Assembly: GCA_964532335.1 (NCBI GenBank) | Contig: CAZHHV010000001.1 | Coordinates: forward strand, 3,327-37,259 | Length of the DNA: 33,933 nucleotides | Source of the DNA: an uncultured Nitrospiraceae bacterium | GTDB lineage: Bacteria; Nitrospirota; Thermodesulfovibrionia; Thermodesulfovibrionales; UBA1546 | Direction of reading: 5' to 3' | Shown: positions 5,024 to 27,399 of the stretch, in pieces | How positions within the stretch are numbered: the first letter of the stretch is position 1 | How the letters are laid out: the number at the start of each line of letters is the position of its first letter | Notes under the pieces: model-generated | What the model was told of the DNA's origin: nothing | Database searches by the model: none | Seen by the model: the letters and a program-made list of their open reading frames with translations, nothing else | Translations under genes and position numbers: made by a program

Positions 5024-6448
5024 TTAAAATCCTGCTGAGATACGGGCAAAATTAATAACTGCGGAAGGCAGCACTCCAATAAATAGGACTGCAATTACTG
5101 TTATTGCAAGCGCGAGGGCTACTCCATGAGAGACAGAAAGCTGAACTTCAGTCTTGGGTTCTTTCATGTACATATACATTACGATCCTCAGATAAAAATA
5201 TGCTGATATCGCGCTGAATATAACTGCTGTCACGGCAAGCCACGTATATCCTGCGCTTACTGCGCTCATAAAAAGATAAAACTTGCCCATAAACCCCGCT
5301 GTAGGCGGAATCCCTGTGAGTGAAAACATAAATACAAGCATCAAGGCAGCAGCCAATGGATGTGTCTTTGCGAGCCCCTCATAATCAGAGATATCATCTC
5401 CCTTAAATCCCTCTGACCTGAGCATAATCACAACTGCAAATGCGCCTATGTTCATGAATGCATAAATAAACATATAATTCAGAACGCTTGCCATGCCCTC
5501 TGATGTCCCTGCAATTATCCCAAGAAGCACATAACCTGCATGCGCTATTGAAGAATACGCAAGCATCCTTTTTATGTTTGTCTGTGAGATTGCGACTATG
5601 TTCCCGACAGCCATCGTAAGTATCGCTATCGGTATAAGAATGCCTGTCCATTCAATTCTTGCCGCGCCGAATGCTGTCATGAAAACCCTTCCAAGCACAG
5701 CAAACCCTGCCGCCTTGGGGCCTACTGACATAAATGCAGTGATGGAAGTAGGCGCGCCTTCATAAACATCAGGCGCCCACATGTGGAAAGGAACAGCAGC
5801 TATCTTGAATGAGAACGCTACTGCAAACATAATCATGGACAGCATTAAAACAGGATTGCCTGAAAGTCCATTACTGGATATGTAAGAAGATATCGCCTTG
5901 AGGTCTGTTGTGCCTGTAAGCCCGTATATCATTGATGTGCCATAGAGCAGAAATGCTGATGCAAATGCGCCAAGGAGGAAATACTTCATTGCGGCTTCGT
6001 TAGACTTTATGTCATGTCTCAGGAACCCTGCAAGCACATAAGTGCTCAATGCCATAAGTTCAAGCCCAAGATAGAGAGTTATCAGGTCTCCCGCTGACGC
6101 CATAAGCATCATGCCGAGAGTGGAAAAAAGTATAAGGCTGTAATATTCCCCGAAATTCACTTTTTCTATTGCGATGTATTTCACTGATATAAGGACAGTG
6201 AGAACGACATTCAGCATAAAAATAAGCTTGAAGAACAGGCTGTAACCATCAGCTATAAACATCCCCTTAAATGTGGTTCCCGCGGAACCGGCAAGCAAAT
6301 ATGTAACTACTGCAGCACTCACTATGCTCAGGAATGCAATCGTCTCTTTTCTTTTAATCACAAGCTCTGAAAGCAGAATGAGAAGAGCAAGGCACGTCAT
6401 CACGATTTCAGGCATCACAGGCCCAAGGTCAGGCATTACAAACGGCAT
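5024..6448 (-). CDS. nuoN: NADH-quinone oxidoreductase subunit N
   Basis: It is a polytopic antiporter-like protein at the last position of the nuo operon. The ATG at 6448 is preceded by AGGAGG. The ORF-track start at 6451 is a TTG one codon upstream. Confidence 0.93.
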   Translation of the reverse strand: MPFVMPDLGPVMPEIVMTCLALLILLSELVIKRKETIAFLSIVSAAVVTYLLAGSAGTTFKGMFIADGYSLFFKLIFMLNVVLTVLISVKYIAIEKVNFGEYYSLILFSTLGMMLMASAGDLITLYLGLELMALSTYVLAGFLRHDIKSNEAAMKYFLLGAFASAFLLYGTSMIYGLTGTTDLKAISSYISSNGLSGNPVLMLSMIMFAVAFSFKIAAVPFHMWAPDVYEGAPTSITAFMSVGPKAAGFAVLGRVFMTAFGAARIEWTGILIPIAILTMAVGNIVAISQTNIKRMLAYSSIAHAGYVLLGIIAGTSEGMASVLNYMFIYAFMNIGAFAVVIMLRSEGFKGDDISDYEGLAKTHPLAAALMLVFMFSLTGIPPTAGFMGKFYLFMSAVSAGYTWLAVTAVIFSAISAYFYLRIVMYMYMKEPKTEVQLSVSHGVALALAITVIAVLFIGVLPSAVINFARISAGF

Positions 6449-6468
6449 CAAAATCCTCCTTCACAATT

Positions 6469-6534
6469 TGTCATTCCGAGCATTGCGAGGAATCTCGCTT
6501 TTTGAGATTGCTTCGGCTTTGCCTCGCAATGACA
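6469..6534. repeat. Intergenic palindromic element (TGTCATTCCGAG...CTCGCAATGACA), nuoN-nuoM junction
   Basis: The terminal inverted repeat matches at 11 of 12 positions. There is an internal perfect 10 bp IR, cattgcgagg (6481-6490) paired with cctcgcaatg (6522-6531), plus nested short stems. Confidence 0.8.
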
Positions 6535-6536
6535 AC

Positions 6537-8075
6537 TCATTTGATAATCTCCAGAATATTTTTTGCAACACCTGCCTCATGCATGCCTCCCGAATTTACC
6601 CTCTCAAGCAGATGTTTTACAGACTCATGCATGAATCCGAGGAAAGCATTGGGATAAACTCCAATCCAGAATATAAGTATAATCATCGGCAGAAGTGTGA
6701 TTATTTCTCTTAAATTGATATCTGCAAGCCCTGCAACCTTCTGGTTTGTCTCCATGAAAAATACCCTCTGATAAAGCCAGAGCATATAGCCTGCGCCTAT
6801 GATTACCCCTGTTGCTGCAAGGACACCTGCCCATTGATTCGCCCTGAACCCTCCGAGGATAACCAGAAACTCCCCGATAAACCCGTTTGTTGCAGGAAGT
6901 CCTATTGATGCAAGCGTAAACACCATAAACAAGGCCGCATACACGGGCATTACAGAAGCGACCCCTCCATAATCCGAAATCTGCCTTGTATGGGTCCTGT
7001 CATAAATCATTCCAACGCTTAAAAATAATGCGCCTGTGACTATTCCATGGTTTATCATCTGGAGTATGCCGCCCTCCATGCCCTGCGAATTCAGGGCAAA
7101 GATTCCAAGAGTCACAAAACCCATGTGGCTCACAGAGCTGTATGCAATGAGCCTTTTCAGGTCTGTCTGCGCAAGACATATTACTGCGCCGTAAATTATC
7201 GCTATAACAGAGAGCGTAAGCATCACAGGCGTCATTGCCCTTGATGCATCAGGGAATAACGGCAATGAGAACCTGATAAAACCATAAGCGCCCATCTTGA
7301 TAAGCACGGCAGCAAGGATAACACTGCCTGCTGTCGGAGCCTCTGTATGCGCATCAGGAAGCCATGTGTGCACCGGGAACATCGGAACCTTAACGGCAAA
7401 TGCTGCAAAGAAAGCCCAGAAGAGCCAGAGCTGCAATTGATACGGATATGATTTTGTCATGAGTTCAAGTATGTCAAATGTCCTGCCGGCTTGATAATAA
7501 AGAACGATTATTCCAATAAGCATCAGCACGCTTCCGACAAGCGTGAAGAGGAAAAATTTCACCGCAGCATAAATCCTGTTAGGTCCGCCCCATACGCCTA
7601 TCAAAAGATACATGGGTATAAGCATTGCCTCCCAGAAGAGATAAAAAAGTATGAAATCCAATGAACAAAAAACGCCTATCATTGCGCCTTCCATTATCAG
7701 AATGGAGATATAAAATTCTTTTGTCTTTGTTTTTATAGAATTCCATGAGATAAGAATGCAGAGTATTGTAATAAGGGTTGAGAGAAGGACAAACAGAATG
7801 CTTATGCCGTCAATGCCGAGATGATAATTAATATTTAATGAAGGAATCCATGAATGTTTTTCTACAAACTGCATGAGATGCGTGGACTTATTGAACTCTG
7901 TGAACAAAGGAATTGAAATAATAAACGCCGCCGTGCTCACAATAAGGCTCAGCCATTTTATGAGGTTTTCATTAGACCTGCTTATCAGGAGCAAAAGCGC
8001 CGCGCCTGCAATTGGCAGGAATATCAATGTGCTCAGTATGGGGAACCCCAAATCATTCATTATCACCTGCTCCAT
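6537..8075 (-). CDS. nuoM: NADH-quinone oxidoreductase subunit M
   Basis: It is a 512 aa Mrp/antiporter-like subunit with motifs such as VPMFPVHTWLPDAHTEAPTAGSVILA. Operon position supports the call. Confidence 0.95.
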   Translation of the reverse strand: MEQVIMNDLGFPILSTLIFLPIAGAALLLLISRSNENLIKWLSLIVSTAAFIISIPLFTEFNKSTHLMQFVEKHSWIPSLNINYHLGIDGISILFVLLSTLITILCILISWNSIKTKTKEFYISILIMEGAMIGVFCSLDFILFYLFWEAMLIPMYLLIGVWGGPNRIYAAVKFFLFTLVGSVLMLIGIIVLYYQAGRTFDILELMTKSYPYQLQLWLFWAFFAAFAVKVPMFPVHTWLPDAHTEAPTAGSVILAAVLIKMGAYGFIRFSLPLFPDASRAMTPVMLTLSVIAIIYGAVICLAQTDLKRLIAYSSVSHMGFVTLGIFALNSQGMEGGILQMINHGIVTGALFLSVGMIYDRTHTRQISDYGGVASVMPVYAALFMVFTLASIGLPATNGFIGEFLVILGGFRANQWAGVLAATGVIIGAGYMLWLYQRVFFMETNQKVAGLADINLREIITLLPMIILIFWIGVYPNAFLGFMHESVKHLLERVNSGGMHEAGVAKNILEIIK

Positions 8076-8093
8076 TGCTTACTCCGACTCACC

Positions 8094-8171
8094 GTCATTC
8101 CTGCGGAGGCAGGAATCCAGGCTTGCCATAGAAATAGAAACTCTGGATTCCGCATCAAGTGCGGAATGACA
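8094..8171. repeat. GTCATTCC...GGAATGACA double-hairpin element, nuoM-nuoL junction
   Basis: The sequence is gtcattccTGCggagGCAggaatccag, then a 22 nt spacer, then ctggattccGCAtcaagTGCggaatgaca. The reverse complement of the right arm is identical to the left arm of the element at 17653. Confidence 0.85.
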
Positions 8172-8226
8172 GACTTGTTGATGACTTCTTTAGAGATTTG
8201 ACAATTCATTTTTTCTCCTCATCCAC

Positions 8227-10146
8227 CTACCTCAACAACATCACTGCCATTATTATCAACAAGCCCAGCGCCATTATTGCTGCATAGTGCTGTAACAAAC
8301 CTGTCTGGACTTTCCTCAGAATCCGGCTGAATTGTCCGATCCCTTTTGGGACACCATTAACAATAGCCTCAATAATCCTTGCATCCGTAATCCCGATGAG
8401 TATATTTTTGGCTGTCCAGATTGTTGGCCTCACGATTATAAAACTGTAAAGTTCATCCACATAGTATTTATTCCAGAGTATTTTATATGCGGCATTGAAT
8501 TTCTGAGCGAGCATGACAGGGATATCAGTCTTTGCAAGATAGAATAATGCTGCAAGCCCTATCCCTGAAAAACCTGCGATTACTGATATTGCCATCACCA
8601 TCCATTCCTCTGCATGTGTGCCGTGCGCTTCGGGATGCCCGAGCACAGGTTTTAAAAATTCCGTGAAATGCACGCCTCCTCCAAGCAGATGGGGAATCCC
8701 AATCCATCCTGATGCAACAGCGCCGACGCAGAGAATCACCAATGGTATTGTCATGGCCTTTGGAGATTCATGGAGATGATGTTCCTGTTCGTGCGTGCCC
8801 CGGAATTTTCCGTGGAACGTGAGGAATATAAGCCTGAATGAATAAAATGCTGTAAGGAACGCAACAACAGTCCCGATAGCCCACACGAATTTCCCCACAG
8901 GACTCTGCCCTGAATATGCAAGCCAGAGTATTTCATCCTTGCTGAAGAATCCTGCAAAGCCGGGCACGCCTGCAATGCTCAATGACGCAAAGAGCATTGT
9001 CCAGTATGTAATTGGCATATATTTCTTAATGCCGCCCATCTTCTGAAGGTCAAGCTCTCCTGACATTGCGTGCATTACGCTCCCTGCGCACAGGAAAAGA
9101 AGGGCTTTAAAAAATGCATGTGTGTAAAGATGGAACATTCCTGCGGTGTAAGCTCCGACTCCTGCTGCAAGGAACATATATCCGAGTTGGCTGATGGTTG
9201 AATACGCTATAATCCTTTTTATATCATTCTGTACAAGGCCGATAGTCGCAGCAAAGAGTGATGTTATAGCCCCTGTTAATGCAACCACTATAAGCGCTGT
9301 TTCAGAAAGGCTGAATATCGGACTGCACCTTGCAACGAGGAAAACACCTGCCGTAACCATTGTTGCCGCGTGTATCAGCGCGCTGACAGGGGTAGGACCC
9401 TCCATTGCATCAGGAAGCCAGACATGAAGCGGCATCTGCGCTGACTTCCCAATTGAGCCGCAGAAAAGAAGAAGCGCAATCAATGTCATAAGATGCACGT
9501 CATATCCAAGGAAATTAATTGTTTGTGCTGCAAGGCCCTTTGCCTGTGAAAAGACAGGCTCATAATAAACGGTTCCGAATGTGAGGAATATCATTATTAT
9601 TCCGAGACCGAAGCCGAAGTCGCCAAACCTGTTCACTATAAAAGCCTTTTTGCCTGCGTCAGAGGCTGACTTCTTGTCAAAGTAATATCCTATGAGAAAG
9701 TATGAACACAAGCCGACCCCTTCCCATCCAAAATACAACTGGAGGAAGTTATTAGCCATAACAAGCATGAGCATACAGAAAGTAAATAGACTGAGATATG
9801 CAAAAAACCTGTAATATCCTTTATCTCCATGCATATAACCAACAGAATATATATGTATGAGGGTACTGCAGGTTGTTACAACAACAAGCATTACCGCAGT
9901 AAGCGGGTCAATAAGAAAACCCACAGAGACCTTGAATTCGCCGGAAACAATCCATGAGTAGATGTCTTCATTTATAACCTTGCCTGACAGGACATCAGGC
10001 AGTGTCATTACAGTCACAACCCATGACCCGGCAACCGCAAGTATTGATACCCAGTGGCTATGCTCCTTCAGATACTTCCTGCCGAAAAGAATATTTATCA
10101 AAAAAGCGGCAAGCGGCAGAAATGGTATTAAAAGATAGTTGTTCAT
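8227..10146 (-). CDS. nuoL: NADH-quinone oxidoreductase subunit L
   Basis: It is a 639 aa antiporter-like subunit with a long C-terminal extension, containing MPLHVWLPDAMEGPTPVSALIHAATMV. Confidence 0.95.
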   Translation of the reverse strand: MNNYLLIPFLPLAAFLINILFGRKYLKEHSHWVSILAVAGSWVVTVMTLPDVLSGKVINEDIYSWIVSGEFKVSVGFLIDPLTAVMLVVVTTCSTLIHIYSVGYMHGDKGYYRFFAYLSLFTFCMLMLVMANNFLQLYFGWEGVGLCSYFLIGYYFDKKSASDAGKKAFIVNRFGDFGFGLGIIMIFLTFGTVYYEPVFSQAKGLAAQTINFLGYDVHLMTLIALLLFCGSIGKSAQMPLHVWLPDAMEGPTPVSALIHAATMVTAGVFLVARCSPIFSLSETALIVVALTGAITSLFAATIGLVQNDIKRIIAYSTISQLGYMFLAAGVGAYTAGMFHLYTHAFFKALLFLCAGSVMHAMSGELDLQKMGGIKKYMPITYWTMLFASLSIAGVPGFAGFFSKDEILWLAYSGQSPVGKFVWAIGTVVAFLTAFYSFRLIFLTFHGKFRGTHEQEHHLHESPKAMTIPLVILCVGAVASGWIGIPHLLGGGVHFTEFLKPVLGHPEAHGTHAEEWMVMAISVIAGFSGIGLAALFYLAKTDIPVMLAQKFNAAYKILWNKYYVDELYSFIIVRPTIWTAKNILIGITDARIIEAIVNGVPKGIGQFSRILRKVQTGLLQHYAAIMALGLLIIMAVMLLR

Positions 10147-10150
10147 TTTC

Positions 10151-10453
10151 TCATCCCTTCATCTCATCCATTTCATCAACATGAACAGTGTCCTTGTTCC
10201 TGAACAGCGCGATAATTATCGCAAGCCCTATCGCGGCCTCTGCCGCTGCGACAGTGATTATAAAGATAACAAGAATCTGCCCTCTCATGTTCTGCAGGTA
10301 ATGGCTGAATGCCACAAGGCTGATATTCACTGCATTCAGCATAAGCTCTATTGACATGAACATTATTATGATATTCCTTCTTGTAAGGAACCCGAAGACT
10401 CCTATCATAAAAACCACTGCGCTCAACATCAGATACCAGTTCAAAGGAACCAT
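10151..10453 (-). CDS. nuoK: NADH-quinone oxidoreductase subunit K
   Basis: It is 100 aa with 3 TM segments and a conserved membrane-embedded Glu ([22 protein letters not shown]). Confidence 0.95.
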
Positions 10454-10467
10454 AGCTTGCTCCGCAA

Positions 10468-10529
10468 GAATTCAAAATTTAAAATTGAAAATTCAAAATT
10501 CTTGAATATTGGATATTGAATATTGAATC
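10468..10529. repeat. AT-rich two-armed tandem-repeat hairpin, nuoK-nuoJ junction
   Basis: The left arm has about 8-9 nt units (aaaattcaa / aaattgaaa). The centre is attcaaAATTCttgaat. The right arm has 8 nt units (atattgga / tattgaat). The arms are only partly complementary. Confidence 0.6.
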
Positions 10530-10538
10530 TTCTTTTCA

Positions 10539-11051
10539 TCAGCTTCTTGTCTTCCTTTTCGCGAGTACTATTGCCCCTATAATCGCAACAAGCAGCACAA
10601 GGGAAGCTATTTCAAAAGGAAAAAGGTAATCGGTGTATAACAGAGTTCCAAGCGCCTTTGTATGAGTCTCCTGTTTTATAAATTCAATGGAATATTTTCC
10701 GGCAGGCCCCGGCACAAAAGACTTTACTACACTCAAGACAATCACAAGCAAAGCCGCAGTTACAAAAAGCCCGGCGGGCCATGCGCCTATAAATCTTTTT
10801 ACTTTAAGTTCCTCCCTAAGATTCAGAAGAAGCAAAACAAAAAGGAACAGCACGAGTATTGCTCCTGCATAAACTATAATCTGTATTGCCGCGATAAACT
10901 CGGCGTTCAGGAACAGATAAAGACCTGCAATGTGCAAGAAAAGCAAAAGCATCCACATAACGCTGTGCACAGGGTTGCTTCTCGTAACAACCAGCAGCGA
11001 AAAGATGACTATCGCAGAAGCGTAATATGCAAAAAATAATTCAGGCAACAT
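10539..11051 (-). CDS. nuoJ: NADH-quinone oxidoreductase subunit J
   Basis: It is about 170 aa, hydrophobic, and in the expected operon position. The ATG at 11051 has GGAG 6 nt upstream. The track start at 11054 is a GTG. Confidence 0.92.
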   Translation of the reverse strand: MLPELFFAYYASAIVIFSLLVVTRSNPVHSVMWMLLLFLHIAGLYLFLNAEFIAAIQIIVYAGAILVLFLFVLLLLNLREELKVKRFIGAWPAGLFVTAALLVIVLSVVKSFVPGPAGKYSIEFIKQETHTKALGTLLYTDYLFPFEIASLVLLVAIIGAIVLAKRKTRS

Positions 11052-11068
11052 CACACGCTCCGCTTTTC

Positions 11069-11146
11069 TGTCATTCCAGCAGTTCTTAAGCGGGAATCCA
11101 GAAGATTAATTAAAAGACTGGATTCCGTGTCAAGCACGGAATGACA
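11069..11146. repeat. GTCATTCC...GGAATGACA double-hairpin element, nuoJ-nuoI junction
   Basis: The sequence is tgtcattcc...gggaatccag, then a spacer, then ctggattccGTGtcaagCACggaatgaca. The reverse complement of the right arm is identical (29 nt) to the left arm of the element at 25976. Confidence 0.85.
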
Positions 11147-11186
11147 TTTTTTATTGTCCTTTGTGTCTCTTTGAGATATATGTGTT

Positions 11187-11738
11187 TTATTTTGCATTCT
11201 TAACTCCCCTAAACATCGCCTGGCCTTCATATCCATGGAAGTCCTCTGCTTTCGGTCTCCAGAAATCTCTGAAATATCTCCTGCCTTTCTCTCCTGCAAA
11301 ATATTTATCCCAGTTAGAGAGAAGTTTTTCTTTCGTCATATAAAAAGGCTCTCTTGAATAATCCGAATATTCGTAATGCTCGCTCAATGTGATTGCGCCG
11401 AAAGGACATGCCTCAACGCAGAACCCGCAGTAAATGCATCTGAGAACCTCTATCTCATACCTGTCCACAACCTTTGTATGGTCTTCGCCGTCCGATGTGT
11501 AGATGTATATGCACTTTGACGGGCAGTAAGCTCCGCAGAGTCCGCAGCCAACACACTTCATCCTGCCATTTTCATCCTTCGCAAGCGCATGAAGCCCCCT
11601 GAACCCCGGCTTCACAGGCCTTTTAACCTTGGGATAGCGCCTGGTCACAGCAGGTGTGAACATGGTTTTGAGAGTCAATGCAAGACCCTTCAGAATCTCC
11701 ACAAAAAATATAGTCCTTATTAATTTAGCGGCTGTCAT
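11187..11738 (-). CDS. nuoI: NADH-quinone oxidoreductase subunit I (2x[4Fe-4S] ferredoxin)
   Basis: Two CxxCxxCxxxCP motifs are present (CVGCGLCGAYCP, CIYCGFCVEACP). The start is uncertain: ATG at 11738, or TTG at 11774 in the ORF track. Confidence 0.9.
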   Translation of the reverse strand: MTAAKLIRTIFFVEILKGLALTLKTMFTPAVTRRYPKVKRPVKPGFRGLHALAKDENGRMKCVGCGLCGAYCPSKCIYIYTSDGEDHTKVVDRYEIEVLRCIYCGFCVEACPFGAITLSEHYEYSDYSREPFYMTKEKLLSNWDKYFAGEKGRRYFRDFWRPKAEDFHGYEGQAMFRGVKNAK

Positions 11739-11785
11739 GCTGAATAAAATGAATTGCCTCGTAGTAAGTTGCAAGGCAGAAAGTC

Positions 11786-11861
11786 TGTCATTCCGGCTTG
11801 TCCGGAATCTTTTTTTGTTTTTAAAAAGGATTCCCGACGCGCTTTGCTTGCGGGAATGACA
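11786..11861. repeat. GTCATTCC...GGAATGACA element, nuoI-nuoH junction
   Basis: The sequence is tgtcattccGGcttgtCCggaatc, then a T/A-rich centre, then ggattcccgacgcgctttgcttgcgggaatgaca. Confidence 0.8.
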
Positions 11862-11898
11862 ACTGTTAGGTTTTTAATTGTCGAAGCATTAATGTGTT

Positions 11899-12951: not shown

Positions 12952-15620
12952 AAACCAGCCTTCTCTATAGCTACTGTATTCCCATCCAGAACAGGGGCCC
13001 TTGTAACAGGCTCTATATCATAGCCCATCAATCTATATGCGCTCTTGCCTTCAAAATTATTAGTGAGCATGACTGAAAAATTGTCTAATGCTTTATCGAT
13101 AACCACAGGCAGTTCAATTGAACCAGTCTTTGTGGAAACTCTGACAACTTCACCCTCTTTAAAGGAAAGCTCCTTAGCTGTATCCGGACTTATTCTTACA
13201 ACCGCCTCAGGATATATCTTCACAAGTGCAGGCACCCTTCTGCTCAAAGTGCCTGAATGGAATAGCGGCCTTTCAATTCTAAGATAAAGTTTCCCGTTAA
13301 CACTAAGTCTCTCTGCATTATGCGCCTGAATCTCTTCCATCATATCCCTTAATGGTTCTCCCTTATAAGGATAAATTCCCTCTCCTTTTTCTATATCTTC
13401 ATATGTAAGGTTTTTATGTAAAGGGGATGCCTTGCAAATCTCATTGAATATATCTTCAACATTTGAGCAATCGAACTTCTTACCCATATTCTTTGCGATA
13501 TTAGAGATAATCCTCCAGTCCTCCATCCCCTCCCTGTTTACTGCCTTTCTCACACGCTGTATTCTTCTTTCCATGTTTGTGAATGTGCCGTCCTTCTCAG
13601 CCCAGCTAAGCGCAGGCAGCACAACATCGGCAAGCATCCCTGTTTCTGTAAGAAATATGTCCTGCACAACAAGGAACTCGATATTTTTAAGCGCTGATTC
13701 CGCTGAATTAGAATCAGGAAGATTATAAGCAGGATTTTCACCCATTACATACATTGCTTTCAGAGAGCCGTTTCTCGCAGTGTCTATCATCTCAAATATT
13801 GTAAGCCCTTGTTTTTCAGGTATCTCACTCTTCCAGATGCTTTCGTATCTTCTTCTGAACTCCACATAAGAAACGGGCCTGTATCCTGGCAGTATATCAG
13901 GTGCGCATCCCATGTCAAGAAGTCCCTGCTCATTTGCCCTGTCAGAAAGCAGATAGATCCTTCCGTTAATAAGATAGTTTATTGCTGATAGGAGCAGGAG
14001 CTTGTAGCTTGCTCCATTACTCTGTGTCGTCTCCTTACCTATTGCTATTGATGGGTTTGTGGATTCTGAAAGGATATTCAAAAACTCATTAAACTCTTTC
14101 TCTCCGATATTGCAGATATTCTTCACATCCTCAACAGAGGTGTTTATATCCTTTATCTTTGCCTCAAGTTTAGGATTTGCATCCGAAAGTCCTTTCTTAT
14201 TTTTTAGTGCAGTAACAATACCTTCAAGCAGAACATCTTCTGTGTATAAGACCGGCACAAGCTTTTGTGGACTGAAATATTCAAGACCTTTGAAATTCCC
14301 TATTGTCAGTATGTTACCACCATTTCTTGAACATGCCCTTATCTGAAGCCCGAGGATAGGATTTATTGTTGTTGGGTCTCCGCCGATCACAAATACAAGA
14401 TCAGAATTCGAAAGACCGGATATTATGTTTGCTGTTGCGCCTTGCCCAAAGATATTCTCTATAAAATTCTGGGCGCCTGCAAAGCCTGTCCTTGCAGTGC
14501 TGTCAATGTTATTTGTCCCGAGCGCAACTCTCATAAATTTCTGGAATATATAATTGTCCTCATTCGTGCATCTCGGTGAGGCAATTCCAGCTATTGCAGA
14601 ATTGCCATACTTCTCTTTAATCTCTGATAGTTTTTTTGCAACAAGGCTTATGGCCTCTTCCCATGTAGCTTCTCTGAAGAGAGACGAGAGACGAGTGACG
14701 AGTGACGAGTTTAATTCAGACATCCATTGCTTATCGTCCTTCGTCCTTCGTCCTTCGTCCTTACTTTCCCTCGGAGCTATTCTTATAAGAGGTGTTGTCA
14801 GCCTCTCTTTGCTTCCTACAAACTCATATCCGAATCTCCCCCTCGTACAGAGAAGCCCGTTATTAACAACAGAACCGATTCTGGGAACAACCCTCTTAAT
14901 CACATCATCACGAACCTGAACAATAAGAGTACATCCAACACCGCAATAGGGACAGATTGTCTCTGTCTCATTCACCATCTGCCACGGCCTGTAACTGTGC
15001 CTGTGGAGTCTTGACATGACTGCTCCGACAGGGCATACAGAGATACAGTTCCCGCAGTATTCGCAATCATATTTGCCGCCCGAGAAAGGCTCAATGTGGG
15101 AATGGCCTCCCCTGCTTATAACGTCAATCGCCGAGGCGCCCTGAACCCCCTCGCACATCCTGACGCATCTGGTGCACATAATACATCTTTCCATATTTCG
15201 AACAATAACAGGGTCTTCGAGGCTTTCAGGAACTTTTCTCTTCTTTTCTTTATATCTACCCTTTGCAGGTCCGTATTTTTCTACAAGGTCCTGCAATTCG
15301 CACTCACCTGCCTTATCGCACACAGGACAATCGAGCGGATGGTTAATAAGCAGAAATTCGAGTGTGCCTCTTCTGACATTGGCTATCTGTTCTGTTTCTG
15401 TTCTGACAACCATTCCGTCAGCAACCATAAGAGTACAGGCTGTCTGAAGTCTTGGTATCTTTTCGACTTCGACAAGACACAGCCTGCATCCGCCGTATCT
15501 TCCAAGCTGTTCATGCCAGCAGAGAGTGGGTATCTTTATCCCTGCAGACCTCGCAGCCTCAAGCACAGTGACAGGCTTCTCTAATTTAATCTCTTTGCCG
15601 TTAATGGTGACTGTAATCAT
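12948..15620 (-). CDS. nuoG: NADH-quinone oxidoreductase subunit G (75 kDa type, with non-catalytic molybdopterin-like domain and an in-frame repeat insertion)
   Basis: The N-terminal [2Fe-2S] region (CRLCLVEV), the His-ligated cluster HPLDCPVCDKAGEC, and the 4Fe-4S motifs are present. In the molybdopterin-like domain, STARTGFAG replaces the FDH Cys/Sec-His site. Confidence 0.93.
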   Translation of the reverse strand: MITVTINGKEIKLEKPVTVLEAARSAGIKIPTLCWHEQLGRYGGCRLCLVEVEKIPRLQTACTLMVADGMVVRTETEQIANVRRGTLEFLLINHPLDCPVCDKAGECELQDLVEKYGPAKGRYKEKKRKVPESLEDPVIVRNMERCIMCTRCVRMCEGVQGASAIDVISRGGHSHIEPFSGGKYDCEYCGNCISVCPVGAVMSRLHRHSYRPWQMVNETETICPYCGVGCTLIVQVRDDVIKRVVPRIGSVVNNGLLCTRGRFGYEFVGSKERLTTPLIRIAPRESKDEGRRTKDDKQWMSELNSSLVTRLSSLFREATWEEAISLVAKKLSEIKEKYGNSAIAGIASPRCTNEDNYIFQKFMRVALGTNNIDSTARTGFAGAQNFIENIFGQGATANIISGLSNSDLVFVIGGDPTTINPILGLQIRACSRNGGNILTIGNFKGLEYFSPQKLVPVLYTEDVLLEGIVTALKNKKGLSDANPKLEAKIKDINTSVEDVKNICNIGEKEFNEFLNILSESTNPSIAIGKETTQSNGASYKLLLLSAINYLINGRIYLLSDRANEQGLLDMGCAPDILPGYRPVSYVEFRRRYESIWKSEIPEKQGLTIFEMIDTARNGSLKAMYVMGENPAYNLPDSNSAESALKNIEFLVVQDIFLTETGMLADVVLPALSWAEKDGTFTNMERRIQRVRKAVNREGMEDWRIISNIAKNMGKKFDCSNVEDIFNEICKASPLHKNLTYEDIEKGEGIYPYKGEPLRDMMEEIQAHNAERLSVNGKLYLRIERPLFHSGTLSRRVPALVKIYPEAVVRISPDTAKELSFKEGEVVRVSTKTGSIELPVVIDKALDNFSVMLTNNFEGKSAYRLMGYDIEPVTRAPVLDGNTVAIEKAGL
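14683..14761. repeat. Two-armed heptamer tandem repeat inside nuoG coding sequence
   Basis: There are four heptamers, GACGAGA plus 3x GACGAGT, at 14683-14710. A 23 nt spacer follows, then 4x TCGTCCT at 14734-14761. The GACGA and TCGTC cores are complementary, 5 of every 7 nt. Confidence 0.85.
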
Positions 15621-15667
15621 GATTTATCCAAATCTGCTAATACGTCCCTCTCTAAAACCCCACTTTT

Positions 15668-15731
15668 TGTCATTCCCGCTTGTCGGGAATCTTTCTTTTC
15701 CCAGAAGGATTGCGGACAAGCTGCAATGACA
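15668..15731. repeat. GTCATTCC...GCAATGACA element, nuoG-nuoF junction
   Basis: The sequence is tgtcattcccgcttgtcgggaatctttcttt...ggattgcggacaagctgcaatgaca. It is nearly identical to the copy at 17047. Confidence 0.85.
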
Positions 15732-15743
15732 TGGAAATACTTT

Positions 15744-17003
15744 TTATTCAAATTTACACTTCCCATCTTTTATATGTTCCTCAAACTCATTTCTGAAATG
15801 TTTTATGAAATTCTGGACAACAGATGCTGCTCCGTCTCCCAGCGGGCAGAATGTCTTGCCAAGCATATTCCCTGAAACAGAAAGCAAAAGTTCTATATCT
15901 CCTTCCACGCCTTCGCCGTTTTCTATCCTTTCAAGAATACTTCTCAGCCATCCTGTGCCTTCACGGCATGGTGTGCACTTTCCGCATGATTCATGCTCAA
16001 GGAATTTCAGCGCCCTATGGCATACTTTAACGAGACACACTGTTTCATCCATCACAATCACGGCGCCTGAGCCAAGCATGCTCCCGTGCTTTGGCATATT
16101 TACAAAATCCATAGGGCAGTCTATCTTATCCGCAGGAAGCACCGGCGTTGTAATCCCGCCCGGAATCACAGCCTTAAGATTCTTCCCTCCCTTAATTCCT
16201 CCGCAGTGTTTATAGATTATGTCCCGCAGGATTGTGCCCATAGGCAGTTCATAAACACCGGGTTTTTCAACATGACCGCTTACACAATAGAGTTTGGGGC
16301 CCGGGCAATCAGAACTTCCGATCTTTGAATATTCCTCACCGCCAATTTCTATAATAAGGGGAATGTTTGACAGCGTCTCTACGTTATTGACAACAGTAGG
16401 TTTTGCAAAAACGCCCACATTAACAGGGAACGGCGGCCTCGTCCTCGGCTGTCCCCTATCCCCCTCCAGTGATTCTATTAAAGCGGTCTCTTCGCCGCAT
16501 ATGTATGCGCCTGCGCCGCGATGAACAGCGAGATGAAACTTTATGCCCTTCCCTAAAATATCATCGCCGAGAAGATTGTTTTCATATGCCTGAGCGATTG
16601 CCCTATTCAGGATATGATATGCGCCCGGATACTCGCCTCTCAGGTATATGTATCCGTACTGTGCTCCGATTGCATAACCTGATATGACCATGCCCTCTAT
16701 CAGGAGATGGGGATTCTTCTCAAGTATAGGCCTGTCTTTGAATGTGCCCGGTTCTCCTTCATCTGCATTGCATAGGAGATATTTCGGGAATTTCGTATCA
16801 GCGCATGCAAAGGACCACTTCATTGCAACCGGGAACCCTGCTCCGCCCCTTCCCCTTAACCCTGCTTTTTTCACTATATCAGTTATGTCGTGCGGCTTGT
16901 CCTCAAACGCCTTCGGAAGACTCCTGTATCCGCCAATTTTTTTGTACTCGTTAATATCAGCTGAATTCGGGTTGTCTATGTTCTTTAAAAGTACTTTTTC
17001 CAT
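15744..17003 (-). CDS. nuoF: NADH-quinone oxidoreductase subunit F (FMN/NADH-binding)
   Basis: GRGGAGFPVAMKW, CNADEGEPGTFKDR and the N3 cluster motif ESCGKCTPCREG are present. Confidence 0.95.
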   Translation of the reverse strand: MEKVLLKNIDNPNSADINEYKKIGGYRSLPKAFEDKPHDITDIVKKAGLRGRGGAGFPVAMKWSFACADTKFPKYLLCNADEGEPGTFKDRPILEKNPHLLIEGMVISGYAIGAQYGYIYLRGEYPGAYHILNRAIAQAYENNLLGDDILGKGIKFHLAVHRGAGAYICGEETALIESLEGDRGQPRTRPPFPVNVGVFAKPTVVNNVETLSNIPLIIEIGGEEYSKIGSSDCPGPKLYCVSGHVEKPGVYELPMGTILRDIIYKHCGGIKGGKNLKAVIPGGITTPVLPADKIDCPMDFVNMPKHGSMLGSGAVIVMDETVCLVKVCHRALKFLEHESCGKCTPCREGTGWLRSILERIENGEGVEGDIELLLSVSGNMLGKTFCPLGDGAASVVQNFIKHFRNEFEEHIKDGKCKFE

Positions 17004-17046
17004 AACCTTAAACTTTTAATAGAAATTCATAAGTGAAACCACGGTT

Positions 17047-17107
17047 TGTCATTCCCGCTTGTCGGGAATCTTTCTTTAGGAAGGATTGCGGACAAGCCGC
17101 AATGACA
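17047..17107. repeat. GTCATTCC...GCAATGACA element, nuoF-nuoE junction (with outer imperfect IR 17029-17042 / 17124-17137)
   Basis: The first 31 nt are identical to the copy at 15668, and the right arm differs at 1 nt. The outer ataagtgaaaccac / gtggtattacttat pair is complementary at 12 of 14 positions. Confidence 0.85.
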
Positions 17108-17168
17108 GAACAAAAATGGTCATGTGGTATTACTTATGGTCTTATTAGTAACTTCTAACTCTTTCCTC

Positions 17169-17633
17169 CTATTTATATTTCGCTAATATTTCCTCTATAT
17201 ACTTTTCCGTAAGATTCTCATAAAAATCGTCATTCACAAGCATTGCAGGCGCTGTGCCGCATGCGCCTATGCATTCCATGATAACAAGTGAAAACCTTTT
17301 GTCAGGAGTTGTCCCTCCGGGTTCAAGCCCGTATTTATTCTTAAGAAAGTCTGAAAGCTTCTCTGCGCCGAGTATCATGCATGAGACATTTGTACATAGC
17401 TGTATAACATGCCGTCCCATAGGCTTATGCTTATACATTGCATAAAACGTCCCCACTCCTCTTGCAATCGCCTTTGGAACACCGAGAGCATCTGAAACAG
17501 CTTCATATGCATCAGCTCCGAGATGCCCGAATTCTCTCTGAGCAATATAAAGGGCAGGCAATAGCGCCGCGCTCGCATCAGGATACTTCTGTCGTATCTC
17601 ATTCAGTTCTTTTATGGCTGCTTCGCTAAACAT
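17169..17633 (-). CDS. nuoE: NADH-quinone oxidoreductase subunit E ([2Fe-2S])
   Basis: It has a thioredoxin-like fold with C-x4-C...C-x3-C (LCTNVSC...CIGACGTAP). Confidence 0.93.
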   Translation of the reverse strand: MFSEAAIKELNEIRQKYPDASAALLPALYIAQREFGHLGADAYEAVSDALGVPKAIARGVGTFYAMYKHKPMGRHVIQLCTNVSCMILGAEKLSDFLKNKYGLEPGGTTPDKRFSLVIMECIGACGTAPAMLVNDDFYENLTEKYIEEILAKYK

Positions 17634-17652
17634 TTCCTTAAATTTTCCTCGC

Positions 17653-17723
17653 CGTCATTCCGCACTTGATGCGGAATCCAGAGCTTCTGATGAGAACTGG
17701 ATTCCCGCCTGCGCGGGAATGAC
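17653..17723. repeat. GTCATTCC...GGAATGACA double-hairpin element, nuoE-nuoD junction
   Basis: The sequence is gtcattccGCActtgaTGCggaatccag, then a 15 nt spacer, then ctggattccCGCctgcGCGggaatgaca. Confidence 0.85.
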
Positions 17724-17740
17724 AAAACTAAAAACTGTAT

Positions 17741-18931
17741 TCACCTATCGCATTCTCCCAAGACTATGTCAATACTCCCTATGTTTGCGATAACGTCTGC
17801 GACAAATCCACCCTCGCATAATTTCGGCAGAATTGATGCATGAACAAAAGAGGGCGCTCTCACTCTCATCCTGTACGGCTTGCCGGTGCCGTCGCTTACA
17901 AAATAAAATCCGAGTTCCCCTTTAGGAACCTCTGTAGCAGAATATATCTCTCCTTCAGGAACAACCGGACCTTTTGTTATCAGGACAAACTGATGTATGA
18001 GATGTTCCATGTCCTTTAAGACCATATCTTTGGGAGGAAGGGTAAACTTGGGGGCATTAGCCATTACAGGGCCTGCAGGCAGTTTTTCTATGCACTGTTT
18101 AATTATCCTGTTTGCCTGCTTCATCTCGCCCATCCTGACAAGATACCTGTCATAGCAATCTCCGTTTTTCCCCAAAGGGACATCAAACTCAACCCTGTCA
18201 TAAGCATCATAAGGGGCATGTTTTCTTACGTCATAGTTCACGCCGGAGCCCCTCAGCATACCGCCTGTAAGCCCCCAGTTGACAGCCTCTTCTGCGGAAA
18301 TAACGCCTATGCCGACTGTCCTCTTCTTCCAAACCCTGTTTTCAGTGACAAGTGTTTCATAGTCATCCATCCTGTCAGGAAACTCAAGAACAAACTCATA
18401 GAGTTCATCAAGAAATTCCTGTGAAATATCATTCCTAACTCCGCCAATCCTCGGATAACTTACCGTGAGCCTTGCCCCGCACAATGTTTCAAAAAGGTCA
18501 AGGATGCGCTCTCTTTCCCTGAATGCATATAAAAATGGAGTTGTTGCGCCGATATCAAGGACATGTGTTCCAAGCCATATAATGTGGCTTGAAATCCTTC
18601 CCATCTCAGCGACCATGGTTCTGATAAACTTTGCCCTTTCAGGCGCTTCAATGCCAAAAAGTTTTTCAACGGCATTTACATAGCCGACATTGTTGTTCAT
18701 GGATGATATGTAATCGAGTCTGTCGGTTAGGGGAAGTGCAGAAAAATACGTCCTGTTTTCTCCGAGTTTCTCTATCCCCCTGTGGAGATAACCAACATGA
18801 GGAGCGCATTTAATAACAGTCTCGCCGTCAAGGGTAAGCACAAGCCTAAGAACCCCATGGGTTGCCGGATGCTGGGGCCCCATGCTGATGGTTAGTTCCC
18901 TTGTCTCAAATGTCTTTTCTATTTGTTCCAT
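17741..18931 (-). CDS. nuoD: NADH-quinone oxidoreductase subunit D
   Basis: It is 396 aa of the 49 kDa / NiFe-large-subunit-like family ([14 protein letters not shown]..., ends ...DIVLGECDR). Confidence 0.95.
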
Positions 18932-18938
18932 AGTTTTT

Positions 18939-18990
18939 GGTGTCAGTGTCAGTTGTCAGTAGCTGACACTAATCACTGTCACTATTCACT
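18939..18990. repeat. Two-armed 6-7 nt tandem-repeat hairpin, nuoD-nuoC junction
   Basis: The left arm is tgtcag tgtcag ttgtcag, the loop is tag, and the right arm is ctgacac taatcac tgtcac tattcac. The perfect core palindrome tgtcagTAGctgaca lies at 18954-18968. Confidence 0.75.
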
Positions 18991-18994
18991 TTAG

Positions 18995-19528
18995 TTATTC
19001 CTGCCATTCAAACTCTTTAAATCTCTTTGCCCTGTCAAGAACTGCCTTAAACCCTGACCATTCCTTCTCAGTCCCCTTCAGCGGATAATCCTTTCTCAGT
19101 GGATGGCCCTCCCAGTCCTCAGGCATAAGGACTCTCCTGAGATCCGGATTACCTTTAAAAATAATCCCGAACATGTCATAGCATTCCCTTTCATGCCAGT
19201 TTGCGCCGGCCCATACAGCAGTAACAGAATCAATCTCAAGACTGCTCTCAGGCACCTCTGCCTTTAACCTTATTGCATGACAGCGCTTTATAGAATAAAG
19301 ATGATAGACAACCTCAAACCTCTTTTCATTTCTCCCCTGATAGTCCACACCGCATACATCAACAAGATAGTCAAAACAAAGGTCAGAATCGTCATGGAGA
19401 TACCTGCATATTTCAAGGATTCTGTCTTTCTTTAATGTGACAGCGGCCTGCTCCCTGAATTCCTTTACCTCAAGGACTTCATCCGGAAACTTATCTTTAA
19501 TCTTACTCGCTATCTCTAAAGGTTCCAT
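18995..19528 (-). CDS. nuoC: NADH-quinone oxidoreductase subunit C
   Basis: It belongs to the 30 kDa subunit family (ANWHERECYDMFGIIFKGNPDLRR) and is not fused to nuoD. Confidence 0.93.
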   Translation of the reverse strand: MEPLEIASKIKDKFPDEVLEVKEFREQAAVTLKKDRILEICRYLHDDSDLCFDYLVDVCGVDYQGRNEKRFEVVYHLYSIKRCHAIRLKAEVPESSLEIDSVTAVWAGANWHERECYDMFGIIFKGNPDLRRVLMPEDWEGHPLRKDYPLKGTEKEWSGFKAVLDRAKRFKEFEWQE

Positions 19529-19536
19529 GTTCTTAG

Positions 19537-19602
19537 TGCAGTAGCTCAGCAGCGCAGTAGCGCAGTAGTATCCTTACTGCTGCTCTGTTGCTCTGCTGCT
19601 CT
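19537..19602. repeat. Two-armed octamer tandem-repeat hairpin, nuoC-nuoB junction
   Basis: The left arm is tgcagtag ctcagcag cgcagtag cgcagtag. The loop is tatcct. The right arm is (t)tactgctg ctctgttg ctctgctg ctct, which is partly complementary. Confidence 0.7.
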
Positions 19603-19606
19603 ATTT

Positions 19607-20119
19607 TTACCTCCACCTGCTCCATCTGAAATGCTCGCCTTTTATCTTTTCCTGAAGCTTTATTATCCCTTCAAGCAGAGTCTCAGGCCTTGGAGGACAG
19701 CCCGGTATATAAACATCCACAGGCAGGAAACTGTCGCATCCCTGCACGGTGCTGTATGTATTGAATATGCCTCCTGAACATGCGCAGCTCCCCATTGAAA
19801 TAACATATCTTGGTTCCGGCATTTGGTCATAGACCCTTCTCACAATCTCAGACATCTTCTTCGTTACAGTGCCTGCGACAATCATAAGGTCCGCCTGTCG
19901 TGGAGAGCCTCTGAAGATAACCCCCATCCTGTCCAGGTCATAGTGTGACGATCCCGTCGTCATCATTTCAATGGCGCAGCATGCAAGCCCGAAGGTCACG
20001 GGCCATAAGGACGAGCTTCTTCCCCAGTTGATGAGCTTGTCCATTGAGGTGATAATGATATTGGGCGACAGTATTTTTGTGCCTTTTTCAACCTCAACAA
20101 GATTAACCGCTGTGTCCAT
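19607..20119 (-). CDS. nuoB: NADH-quinone oxidoreductase subunit B (N2 cluster)
   Basis: It belongs to the PSST family ([11 protein letters not shown]...GSCACSGG...CPPRPE). Confidence 0.95.
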
Positions 20120-20142
20120 TAATATATACCTTACCCCTTTTT

Positions 20143-20226
20143 TTGCGTTTATTGCGTTATAGCGTTATTGCGTTCATTGTTTTCATTATTTTACGCTACA
20201 ACGCTATAACGCTTCACGCCATAACG
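20143..20226. repeat. Two-armed octamer tandem-repeat hairpin, nuoB-nuoA junction
   Basis: The left arm carries GCGTT every 8-9 nt (at 20145, 20154, 20162, 20170). The right arm carries ACGC every 8 nt (at 20193, 20201, 20209, 20217). There is a perfect 13 bp pairing of gcgttatagcgtt (20154-20166) with aacgctataacgc (20200-20212). Confidence 0.8.
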
Positions 20227-20231
20227 ATTTT

Positions 20232-20603
20232 TCAGTCCCATTTAAATGCCTCCTTTTTCCATGCATAAACATAGCCGACAAAAAGTATCACTATAAAAAT
20301 AACCATCTCAATAAATGCGTATAGTCCAATCCTGTCAAATACAACAGCCCAGGGATAAAGGAAAACAGCCTCAACGTCAAAGATAACAAAGAGCATGGCG
20401 ATAATATAGAATTTAACAGAAAATCTGTATCGCGGCTCTCCGACAGGCAGGTTGCCTGATTCATAAGGCATAAGTTTTTCAGGGTATGGCCTTTTCAGTC
20501 TGAGGAGTTCACCGATTAATAAGGCGCCCATTCCGAAGGCCGTTGCGACCATCAAAAATATAAGAACAGGCAAATAATCCGAAGGCAAATAAGTTCCGGG
20601 CAT
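20232..20603 (-). CDS. nuoA: NADH-quinone oxidoreductase subunit A
   Basis: It is 123 aa with 3 TM segments of the ND3 family (YESGNLPVGEPRYRFSVKFYIIAMLFVIFDVE) and is the first gene of the operon. Confidence 0.93.
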   Translation of the reverse strand: MPGTYLPSDYLPVLIFLMVATAFGMGALLIGELLRLKRPYPEKLMPYESGNLPVGEPRYRFSVKFYIIAMLFVIFDVEAVFLYPWAVVFDRIGLYAFIEMVIFIVILFVGYVYAWKKEAFKWD

Positions 20604-23606: not shown

Positions 23607-23663
23607 CCCTGTTAGAGAACTTCCTCTAACGGGATAAAAATTTGACAAGCGAAGGAGAAACTT

Positions 23664-25975: not shown

Positions 25976-26049
25976 TGTCATTCCGTGCTTGACACGGAAT
26001 CCAGTTCCACAATATATCCCTCTGGATTCCCGCTTTCGCGGGAATGACA
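25976..26049. repeat. GTCATTCC...GGAATGACA double-hairpin element downstream of nfnB (nested inside a perfect 12 bp outer IR, 25952-25963 / 26069-26080)
   Basis: The sequence is tgtcattccGTGcttgaCACggaatccag, then a spacer, then ctggattccCGCtttcGCGggaatgaca. The outer pair is caactttcgcag / ctgcgaaagttg. Confidence 0.85.
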
Positions 26050-27387: not shown

Positions 27388-27399
27388 CCCTTCCTCTTT

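Follow-up and report, generated by a model that had tools for sequence, protein, structure and literature searches.

Why are nearly all of the gene junctions in a 14-gene respiratory operon opened up and filled with hairpin-forming repeats? The operon is nuoABCDEFGHIJKLMN of an uncultured Nitrospiraceae bacterium, and it lies on a 33,933-nt stretch of contig CAZHHV010000001.1 (positions 3,327 to 37,259), which was analysed over its whole length and is referred to here as the window. The repeats could be purpose-built for control of the nuo mRNA, or they could be mobile DNA that the operon tolerates, and the latter is the better-supported answer. The nuo junctions have probably been colonised by two classes of palindromic insertion sequences that act at the DNA level and are tolerated in the transcript: inverted doublets of a REP-like hairpin, GTCATTCC, which resemble the Ssn-related motif (SRM) repeats, and hairpins built of short tandem repeats (STRs).

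The nuo set is complete, with C and D as separate genes and a NuoG of 890 amino acids, in a window of ~43% GC. NuoH has its best relatives (83 to 87% amino acid identity) in metagenome-assembled Nitrospirota of a Thermodesulfovibrionia type, including SURF_35, HGW-Nitrospira-1, a Ca. Sulfobium metagenome-assembled genome (MAG), and a Hainich groundwater bin. A promoter-like site, TTGACA-18-TATCTT, is found upstream of nuoA (20661 to 20632). An earlier note, made from this sequence alone, described 11 of the 13 nuo junctions as long (63 to 165 nt, ~1.2 kb in total), and the lengths were reproduced exactly: A/B, 112 nt; B/C, 78; C/D, 63; D/E, 107; E/F, 165; F/G, 123; H/I, 124; I/J, 132; J/K, 85; L/M, 151; and M/N, 85, with a sum of 1225 nt as first called. 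The only tight junctions are G/H (-4 nt, an overlap) and K/L (4 nt), again as described. Alignment to relatives re-set the start codons of nuoI (ATG 11738), nuoJ (ATG 11051), and nuoN (ATG 6448), after which H/I measures 160 nt and the long junctions sum to 1267 nt. The palindrome claimed for every long junction was confirmed in all 11, each of which bears a hairpin; GTCATTSC-type double hairpins were recovered at the same seven junctions (D/E, E/F, F/G, H/I, I/J, L/M, and M/N), and the two-armed tandem-repeat hairpins were present at all four of the remaining ones (A/B, B/C, C/D, and J/K). In-silico folding, a check that the note had proposed, gave z-scores of -2.7 to -5.5 against shuffles for the transcribed strand of most junctions (A/B, -5.3; B/C, -3.3; C/D, -4.3; D/E, -3.7; E/F, -5.5; H/I, -3.4; I/J, -2.7; L/M, -3.2; and M/N, -2.7). 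The values were weak for F/G, where the whole junction reached only -1.6 and the element itself is still a long hairpin, and for J/K (-1.4), the arms of which have about one mismatch per 7-nt unit. The premise that nuo genes usually abut stood for Escherichia coli, in which 9 of 12 junctions are at most 15 nt, and for several close relatives, but it does not apply to Nitrospira, where the junctions are mostly 60 to 140 nt.

The GTCATTSC 8-mer occurs 18 times in the window, against 2.2 expected, and none of 100 shuffles contained more than 7. Sixteen of the 18 copies pair into eight outward-facing doublets, seven of them at nuo junctions and one outside nuo (Table 1). A doublet measures 60 to 77 bp and has the form 5'-(T)GTCATTSC-stem/loop-GSAATC(CAG)…spacer…(CTG)GATTSC-stem/loop-GSAATGAC(A)-3'. 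The layout is REPIN-like: in all eight doublets two inverted hairpins are separated by a short spacer, and each whole doublet is predicted to form one long hairpin. As in MITEs, terminal inverted repeats are present, with the hairpins themselves in that role. Paralogous copies are 92 to 100% identical in parts. The E/F doublet is nested in an outer inverted repeat, CATAAGTAATACCAC / GTGGTTTCACTTATG, in which positions 17124 to 17138 pair with 17028 to 17042 in a predicted outer helix; this nesting suggests that the element was inserted into an older palindrome. In the GTGCTTGACAC half-site variant (11110 to 11140 and 25985 to 26015) the loop holds a perfect TTGACA. In the I/J copy an ATTAAT follows 17 nt past this loop on the nuo sense strand, and the two may form an element-borne promoter-like site; a consensus promoter scan made no call there.

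TABLE 1 Repeat elements of the window and their host operon
Feature	Coordinates	Strand	Description
nuoABCDEFGHIJKLMN operon hosting the elements	5024..20603	minus	Gene identities from NCBIfam/Pfam
D/E SRM doublet	17654..17723		Sense strand TGTCATTCCCGCGCAGGCGGGAATCCAG ... CTGGATTCCGCATCAAGTGCGGAATGAC
E/F SRM doublet	17048..17106		GTCATTGC/GTCATTCC subfamily, A/T-rich spacer; 92% identical to F/G copy
F/G SRM doublet	15669..15730		Near-copy of E/F element
H/I SRM doublet	11787..11860		Junction of 160 nt given conserved nuoI ATG 11738
I/J SRM doublet	11070..11145		Shares one identical half-site with the 25977 copy
L/M SRM doublet	8094..8170		One half-site identical to a D/E half-site
M/N SRM doublet	6470..6533		GTCATTGCGAGG subfamily; GAAGGAGG and the start of nuoN come next
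Eighth SRM doublet, outside nuo	25977..26048		Flanked by a GltD-like gene and a response-regulator/NuoE-like gene
A/B STR hairpin	20145..20225		5' arm ~4x GCGTTATN, 3' arm ~4x ATAACGC
B/C STR hairpin	19538..19602		Arms (AGAGCAGC)n and (CTACTGCG)n
C/D STR hairpin	18940..18990		Arms (AGTGAYW)n and (ACTGACA)n
J/K STR hairpin, weak	10468..10529		Arms (ATTCAAT)4 and (AATTTTR)4-5
nuoG STR hairpin, in frame	14679..14762	-	Arms (AAGGACG)4 and (CTCGTCW)4

The STR hairpins consist of two complementary arms of degenerate 7- to 8-nt tandem repeats and are found at four nuo junctions and in nuoG. The detector used for them gave no hits when run on 10 Markov-resampled copies of the window, on 49 kb of E. 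coli, or on six non-Nitrospirota nuo loci (L044 to L049). Downstream of the A/B element lie a GGGGTAAGG motif and the new start of nuoB. The C/D hairpin stops 8 nt short of the nuoD ATG, which lacks an obvious Shine-Dalgarno (SD) sequence, and at J/K the nuoK ATG is closely preceded by a small hairpin, CTTGC-GGAG-CAAG, with GGAG exposed in the loop. The STR-hairpin architecture is shared by nuo junctions in many Thermodesulfovibrionia and in Nitrospira proper, in unit families that include TCAAGG, ACTGACA/CAACTGA, GCGTTAT/CGTAATG, AATTTTR, GGTCAAT, and ATCTGTC. In Nitrospira spp. (L050 to L081) nearly all nuo junctions are 60 to 140 nt long, and STR hairpins from several unit families fill many of them; an ATCTGTC hairpin is present at F/G in seven of the Nitrospira loci. 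The AAATT type, with its ATGGAATTCAT loop, is dispersed, occurring at F/G, I/J, J/K, K/L, C/D, and D/E in different genomes. The G-rich arm is the 5' one in 53 of 76 arm-skewed hairpins. At J/K the number of units varies in place, from a one-unit hairpin in L003 to 4 to 5 units in the window, L002, and L029. Two Zixibacteria loci (L058 and L069) have long direct arrays, (CGGATTAAA)n, instead of hairpins.

The family of the doublets was identified by a full-text literature search with the GTCATTSC 8-mer, which led to the work of Chenal et al. (2025; PMC11893778). There, the Neisseria Transformation Sequence (NTS) is defined as CGTCATTCCCGCGMAVGCGGGAATCYRG; it contains dRS3 (ATTCCC-N8-GGGAAT), and SRM is a degenerate motif of the same group. 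SsnA, a Neisseria GIY-YIG nuclease of 94 amino acids, binds and cuts NTS/SRM hairpins as single-stranded DNA (ssDNA) only, the cut falling a few bases upstream of the motif, and does not bind the RNA form of NTS. The gene typically lies between repeats (NTS-ssnA-NTS), and the determinants of SsnA action are a GTC 5' of the palindrome for cleavage and a C 3' of it for binding (PMC11893778). Because the strict SRM regular expression passes only 2 of the 16 half-sites of the window, the individual determinants were used instead. All 16 have GTC before the palindrome and an ATTSC/GSAAT stem base, the GTC and stem positions 1 to 5 being wholly or partly set by the search pattern. The C directly 3' of the palindrome lies outside the search word and is nevertheless present in all 16, followed in 9 by CAG. 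The two half-sites that pass the expression (17697 to 17724 in the D/E doublet and 26022 to 26049 in the eighth; 0.07 expected) each match the NTS consensus save for the first base, and the exact consensus is found in relatives L035 and L043. Over 42 copies from the window and relatives, stem positions 6 to 8 vary yet are mostly paired (at position 6, CG in 17 and GC in 14), and 90 of the 106 adjacent half-site pairs in all loci examined face outward. In one metagenome locus (L136) an open reading frame (ORF) for a 94-amino-acid GIY-YIG protein (PF01541, 5.6e-12) stands between two outward SRMs, which is the published NTS-ssnA-NTS layout; a PDB sequence search and NCBIfam were uninformative on this protein. 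Given this layout and the prevalence of outward doublets, the doublets look like gene-less, REPIN/MITE-like derivatives.

Judged by their sequence, the window hairpins are members or close variants of the NTS/dRS3/SRM family. Both groups share the core of GTC, an ATTCC(C) stem, a variable top, (G)GGAAT, and C, often then CAG, and both are intergenic and hairpin forming, the window elements being multicopy at least over these 34 kb, with eight doublets. The host here is a member of the Nitrospirota, not Neisseria; most window copies have other stem tops and loops, such as GYRCTTGAYRC; and the elements, known from sequence alone, are mainly tight, gene-less doublets of 60 to 77 bp inside an operon. 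Two other GIY-YIG genes, in L017 and L038, were rejected as ssn: they are UPF0213-like, lie beside tRNAs, and have different flanks. The L038 gene (70 amino acids) has a 40-nt direct repeat, ACGCTTAGCGTGGTTGACGGGGACGCTGAGCGTCCCACC, on either side (18535 to 18575 and 18881 to 18921), a pairing of gene and repeat that differs from SRM-ssn.

Comparison of the same junctions in related genomes, which the earlier note had recommended, revealed overlaps, very short spacers, or different elements at the same sites; the coding DNA of the closest relatives is 73 to 88% identical to that of the window. At A/B, the two genes share a 10-nt overlap (ATGGGACTGA) in L029, L005, L006, L013, L004, and L008; the window keeps the ATGGGACTGA motif at the end of nuoA with the insert next to it, so that the ancestral overlapping nuoB start is displaced and a new ATG follows the element. 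B/C is a 19-nt overlap in L005. D/E is -1 nt in L029 and 5 nt in L005; E/F is 4 to 15 nt in L005, L012, L013, L016, and L004; and F/G is an overlap (-4 or -1) in L005, L012, L016, and L007. At H/I the two genes overlap by 4 nt in L003, L005, L013, L016, and L004, and at M/N by 4 nt in L002, L007, and L011. J/K is 1 to 4 nt in L005, L012, L016, L007, L011, L004, and L008, and L/M is 3 to 7 nt in L002, L003, L013, L016, L011, and L004. C/D carries a different STR in L029, an SRM doublet in L006, and a third STR type in L011. These differences indicate that the elements are lineage-specific insertions. Orthologous copies also exist: at J/K in L002, L003, and L029, with differing unit numbers, and at B/C in L029. 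The L029 B/C copy shows ordinary divergence, which argues that the B/C element is old and vertically inherited. By comparison, the I/J doublet together with the ~19 nt that separate it from the start of nuoJ (window 11049 to 11145) is 98 to 100% identical to L003 7857 to 7950. Set against each other, these two cases make the SRM doublets appear young, exchanged, or homogenised and the STR hairpins old. Among the relatives, L003 also has extra ORFs at nuoD/E (1317 to 1813) and nuoK/L (8816 to 9430), by eye cNMP-binding-like and KilA-N/ORF6N-like; its K/L insert has half an SRM (…GCGGGAATGACAAC) at the end. In L005 a TPR-repeat ORF, again recognised by eye, is inserted at nuoG/H (9176 to 9919).

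A fifth STR hairpin of the window, which the earlier note did not list, lies within nuoG and in frame. It adds ~30 residues (…IAPRESKDEGRRTKDDKQWMSELNSSLVTRLSSLF…) where five relatives read RKNGVLE; the 30-column insert is absent from L002, L003, L005, L006, and L029 in the protein alignment, and it falls in the linker that joins the Fe-S and molybdopterin-like domains, the boundary being taken from domain matches. In relatives, STR arms reach into nuoF and nuoI at their 3' ends. The displaced nuoB start at A/B, the arms that reach into ORF ends, and the in-frame nuoG copy all argue for events at the DNA level. The nuoG hairpin is comparable to the Rickettsia palindromic elements (RPEs), palindromes found in frame in conserved genes and translated as an extra peptide (PMC2229807), as it is likewise an in-frame palindrome absent from orthologues. 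RPEs differ in their length of 105 to 146 bp and lack tandem-repeat arms, and here there is one in-frame case plus one candidate, in nuoG of L006.

The distribution of the elements outside the window gives little sign of a preference for operons. Metagenomes were scanned with one exact 28-nt half-site containing four degenerate positions, which was found in at least 120 contigs; the first 80 range in GC from 0.30 to 0.61, and nuo-like genes are involved in just one or two of these loci. With a crude ORF caller, 34 half-sites were placed in co-directional, 8 in convergent, and 12 in divergent contexts, against a background of 239, 61, and 43, respectively. The contexts thus resemble the background, and the elements are not operon-specific. 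Over 42 Thermodesulfovibrionia-like loci, the share of junctions with a structured element was 11% within nuo and 9% for the flanking co-directional ones (p=0.73); for STR hairpins alone it was 5% in both. The enrichment within operons that the note had suggested checking was not found in the metagenome contexts. In the Nitrospira-like loci, STRs were found in 5 of 67 co-directional flank junctions and in 0 of 47 convergent or divergent ones, denominators that are rough since the crude ORF caller yields false ORFs in these GC-rich loci. A split of loci into heavy and light loaders was discounted as circular.

Mechanistically, an SRM doublet would correspond to the published NTS-ssnA-NTS unit minus its gene, that is, to a non-autonomous REPIN/MITE-like derivative. 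Copies might be spread or homogenised via ssDNA intermediates, recombination, or gene conversion, sometimes across lineages, presumably with an Ssn enzyme present in this genome and with the elements being neutral. STR hairpins would insert and later grow or shrink by slippage. A 14-gene operon offers 13 possible intercistronic sites, and an insert would survive between cistrons only if the upstream stop and the downstream ribosome-binding site were kept or supplied; the nuoG insert would survive because it lies in a domain linker and leaves the frame intact. The hairpins would fold in the nuo transcript, and its decay or processing may shift as a side effect.

Several observations weigh against colonisation by tolerated mobile DNA. 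Within the window the nuo junctions are more loaded than their neighbours, both for all elements (11/13 versus 3/12; p=0.005) and for SRM doublets (7/13 versus 1/12; p=0.03), in a comparison of 25 junctions that is biased, as the window was chosen for this very feature. No consistent target-site duplication was seen by eye, the only form of analysis made, at the eight insertion sites. Fourteen of the 16 half-sites fail the strict SRM expression, differing in the stem top and loop, and are therefore called NTS/SRM-like variants rather than canonical members. A GIY-YIG regular-expression scan of the metagenome loci and tblastn of the window and loci with two consensus queries gave no ssn gene in the window or in L002 to L081; a GIY-YIG gene stands next to SRM-type repeats only in L136, an unrelated metagenome contig. 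The coding DNA that flanks I/J is only 53 to 87% identical (~74%) between the window and L003, so that neutral vertical descent is insufficient to explain the near-identity of the doublet, which suggests recent transfer, repeated (site-specific) insertion, homogenisation, or strong constraint. Long, STR-filled nuo junctions have been kept across many species of Nitrospira, where the elements could be in use. Finally, the small GGAG-presenting hairpin of the AAATT-type STR is always on the side of the downstream start codon and is thus orientation dependent.

Some of these points would be accounted for if, as the earlier note proposed, the hairpins were functional intercistronic RNA, that is, 3'-exonuclease blocks or RNase III/E sites that tune segment stability and subunit stoichiometry of the nuo mRNA, or, in an extension of that proposal, hairpins that might uncouple and re-initiate translation. 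We consider this unlikely. The hairpins are necessarily part of any polycistronic nuo transcript, so an mRNA effect is possible, and there are precedents: REP elements are 3'-exonuclease barriers that stabilise upstream mRNA (PMC12306157), Correia/NEMIS elements are cut by RNase III, and ERIC alters the stability of flanking transcripts (PMC2229807). E. coli K-12 (L202) itself has a canonical REP-like palindrome, GTAGGTCGGATAAGCCGCCTTCGCGGTGCATCCGAC, in its 163-nt nuoL/M junction (8043 to 8205). A stable hairpin on the transcribed strand of every long junction, the SD-like motif after most elements, the GGAG loop beside the start codon in one STR family, the loading of nuo in the window and again in L029, L037, L036, L034, and L006, the almost uniformly long and STR-filled nuo junctions of Nitrospira, and the restriction of Nitrospira-like STR flank hairpins to co-directional junctions all speak for a role in RNA. 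Against it, folding showed no advantage of the transcribed strand: sense and antisense differed by a mean of -1 kcal/mol over 133 junctions, no usable signal, and 7 of the 11 window junctions fold better as antisense. RNAalifold on the orthologous F/G STR hairpin of the seven Nitrospira loci returned a covariation term of +0.8, with 1 of 16 pairs compensatory and several broken, and terminator-like T tails after half-sites (5 sense versus 9 antisense) are not significantly depleted on the sense strand. Rfam gave no credible family (whole window at gathering thresholds; 4700 to 27500 by E-value), the best match being FtrB with 28 bits against a threshold of 66. Moreover, nuo occupancy equals flanking occupancy over the 42 relatives, close relatives manage with overlapping genes or have different elements at the same junction depending on lineage, one element is inside nuoG, SsnA, the binder of the NTS repeats that these hairpins resemble, does not bind RNA, and the within-window comparison is biased by the choice of the window. 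Selection for segmental mRNA stability or stoichiometry thus gained no positive support from folding strand, covariation, or T tails. The REP/BIME analogy behind it is apt for the element class, inverted hairpin doublets, and the note's fallback of a tolerated, genome-wide expansion of miniature repeats fared better, on the insertion status, the spread of contexts, the nuoG copy, and the 42 relatives.

Tolerated insertion has further competitors. The STR hairpins might arise locally, by slippage in one arm and palindrome-templated copying to the other, with no transposition. The J/K series, running from one unit in L003 to 4 to 5 units at a single site with a common 3' flank, fits such an origin, as do the wide differences in units between junctions (TCAAGG, ACTGACA, GCGTTAT, AATTTTR, GCAGCAGA, and AAGGACG), the ordinary divergence of orthologous copies such as B/C in the window and L029, and the bias towards a 5' G-rich arm, which fits shared constraint over shared ancestry. 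It is nonetheless quite improbable, as the same units and even the same loop, ATGGAATTCAT, appear at F/G in L002, I/J in L006, J/K and K/L in L029, K/L in L011, and C/D and D/E in L037, the hairpin in nuoG is complete with no precursor in relatives, and the A/B element replaces an overlap that left no spacer to expand. That the repeats are mis-assembled or chimeric and the true operon compact is scarcely credible. This family does break assemblies: many half-site matches are near contig ends among the matches listed, the exact NuoD protein is encoded in just one public contig, a 1.3-kb Logan contig (L001) that stops inside the D/E hairpin, and another MAG has an almost identical I/J patch. However, L001 is an independent assembly in which the C/D junction and the start of D/E are identical base for base, which makes mis-assembly unlikely; each junction has its own sequence with intact stops, starts, and SD-like motifs; these element types also occupy nuo junctions in relatives whose assemblies come from other groups; and the nuoG insert preserves the reading frame. 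Two last readings, independent of each other, we regard as doubtful. In one, STR hairpins would be an undescribed, Nitrospirota-wide class of portable intercistronic spacers co-opted to uncouple translation and to segment respiratory mRNAs; in the other, the near-identity of SRM doublets across lineages only ~74% identical in the flanks would mark the ends of Ssn-limited recombination tracts or reflect horizontal exchange of the doublets. The features to which the spacer reading appeals are a G-rich 5' arm with stops in all frames, an SD loop on the 3' side in at least one family, occupancy of most nuo junctions in Nitrospira and Thermodesulfovibrionia, and the possibility of in-frame protein copies.

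Returning to tolerated insertion, the two classes can be placed beside other known repeats. Like REP, BIME, and REPIN elements, the SRM doublets are short imperfect palindromes in many copies, often inverted doublets folding into a long hairpin, and they lie after or between operon genes; the sequence family is different. The enzyme associated with NTS/SRM is a GIY-YIG nuclease, not the Y1 transposase of RAYT-mobilised REPINs. No RAYT (IS200/IS605-type) gene turned up, the ORFs between outward half-sites having been listed by size only, with no systematic search. Correia/NEMIS and ERIC inserts, too, are palindromic, MITE-like, and transcribed together with the genes on either side, but Correia and ERIC have defined terminal inverted repeats, TA target duplications, and lengths of 105 to 155 bp, whereas no duplication was seen for the window elements. 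For the STR hairpins, the nearest counterparts are heptamer repeats, the cyanobacterial STRR and the intergenic TAACTGA repeats of Beggiatoaceae, Cyanobacteria, and Bacteroidetes, published as direct, unstructured arrays, with 1 inverted set among 170 in BOGUAY (MacGregor 2015; PMC4679880). Both have 7-nt tandem units in intergenic positions, often ending a few bases before a start with no obvious SD sequence, and both carry stops in every frame; a few of the present arms have the unit (CAACTGA)n or (ACTGACA)n, one base off TAACTGA. The window STRs are not unstructured direct arrays upstream of starts, as the arrays are paired with their reverse complement to form a hairpin, and their unit sequences are highly varied. 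Within the limited reach of our literature search, no description of tandem repeats in hairpin form was found, nor any paper on nuo-junction repeats or on hairpin repeats of Nitrospira or Thermodesulfovibrio.

What is new for the NTS/SRM family is its host phylum and form, a modest extension: earlier experiments concerned mainly Neisseria (plus a Wolbachia homologue), and NTS/SRM-like repeats are now found in Nitrospirota, where the commonest form is the gene-less outward doublet, in support of the idea that NTS-ssnA-NTS units spawn MITE-like derivatives. The STR hairpins across Nitrospira nuo operons are apparently an unreported pattern. The operon is also a natural experiment in which nearly all coupled junctions of a 14-gene respiratory operon have been opened and the operon not destroyed; together with the translated NuoG palindrome, it should be useful for studies of translational coupling, REP-type mRNA effects, and complex I assembly. 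In practical terms, such repeats break short-read assemblies, shift apparent starts (here those of nuoI, nuoJ, nuoN, and nuoB), and inflate the proteins annotated in MAGs.

Other features of the window and its relatives concern palindromes and genes outside the two classes. A third palindrome family with a C-rich 5' side (…TCCCCCTTTAGTAAAGGGGGA…) is found in the window at 27388 to 27443, between orf127 and the NuoF-GltD gene, and also in L006 (608 to 651 and 9607 to 9649, the latter apparently inside nuoG), at H/I and K/L in L036, and at H/I in L040. A 75-amino-acid ORF on the plus strand (4769 to 4996; MIKKLVSHGNSAALIIDKPILELL…) occupies the larger part of the 278-nt gap that follows nuoN; it looks by eye like an AbrB/SpoVT-type antitoxin and has no Pfam match at an E value of at most 0.001. 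The histidine kinase gene at 20753 to 22333 (HAMP/HisKA/HATPase) contains a single in-frame TGA at 21746 to 21748 (…SHLLLK*FPEGSQ…), past which the HATPase_c domain resumes in the same frame (Pfam, 3.6e-22); possible explanations are a pseudogene, read-through at the TGA, or an error of sequencing. A simple hairpin, CCCTGTTAGAG…CTCTAACGGG, is located at 23607 to 23663.

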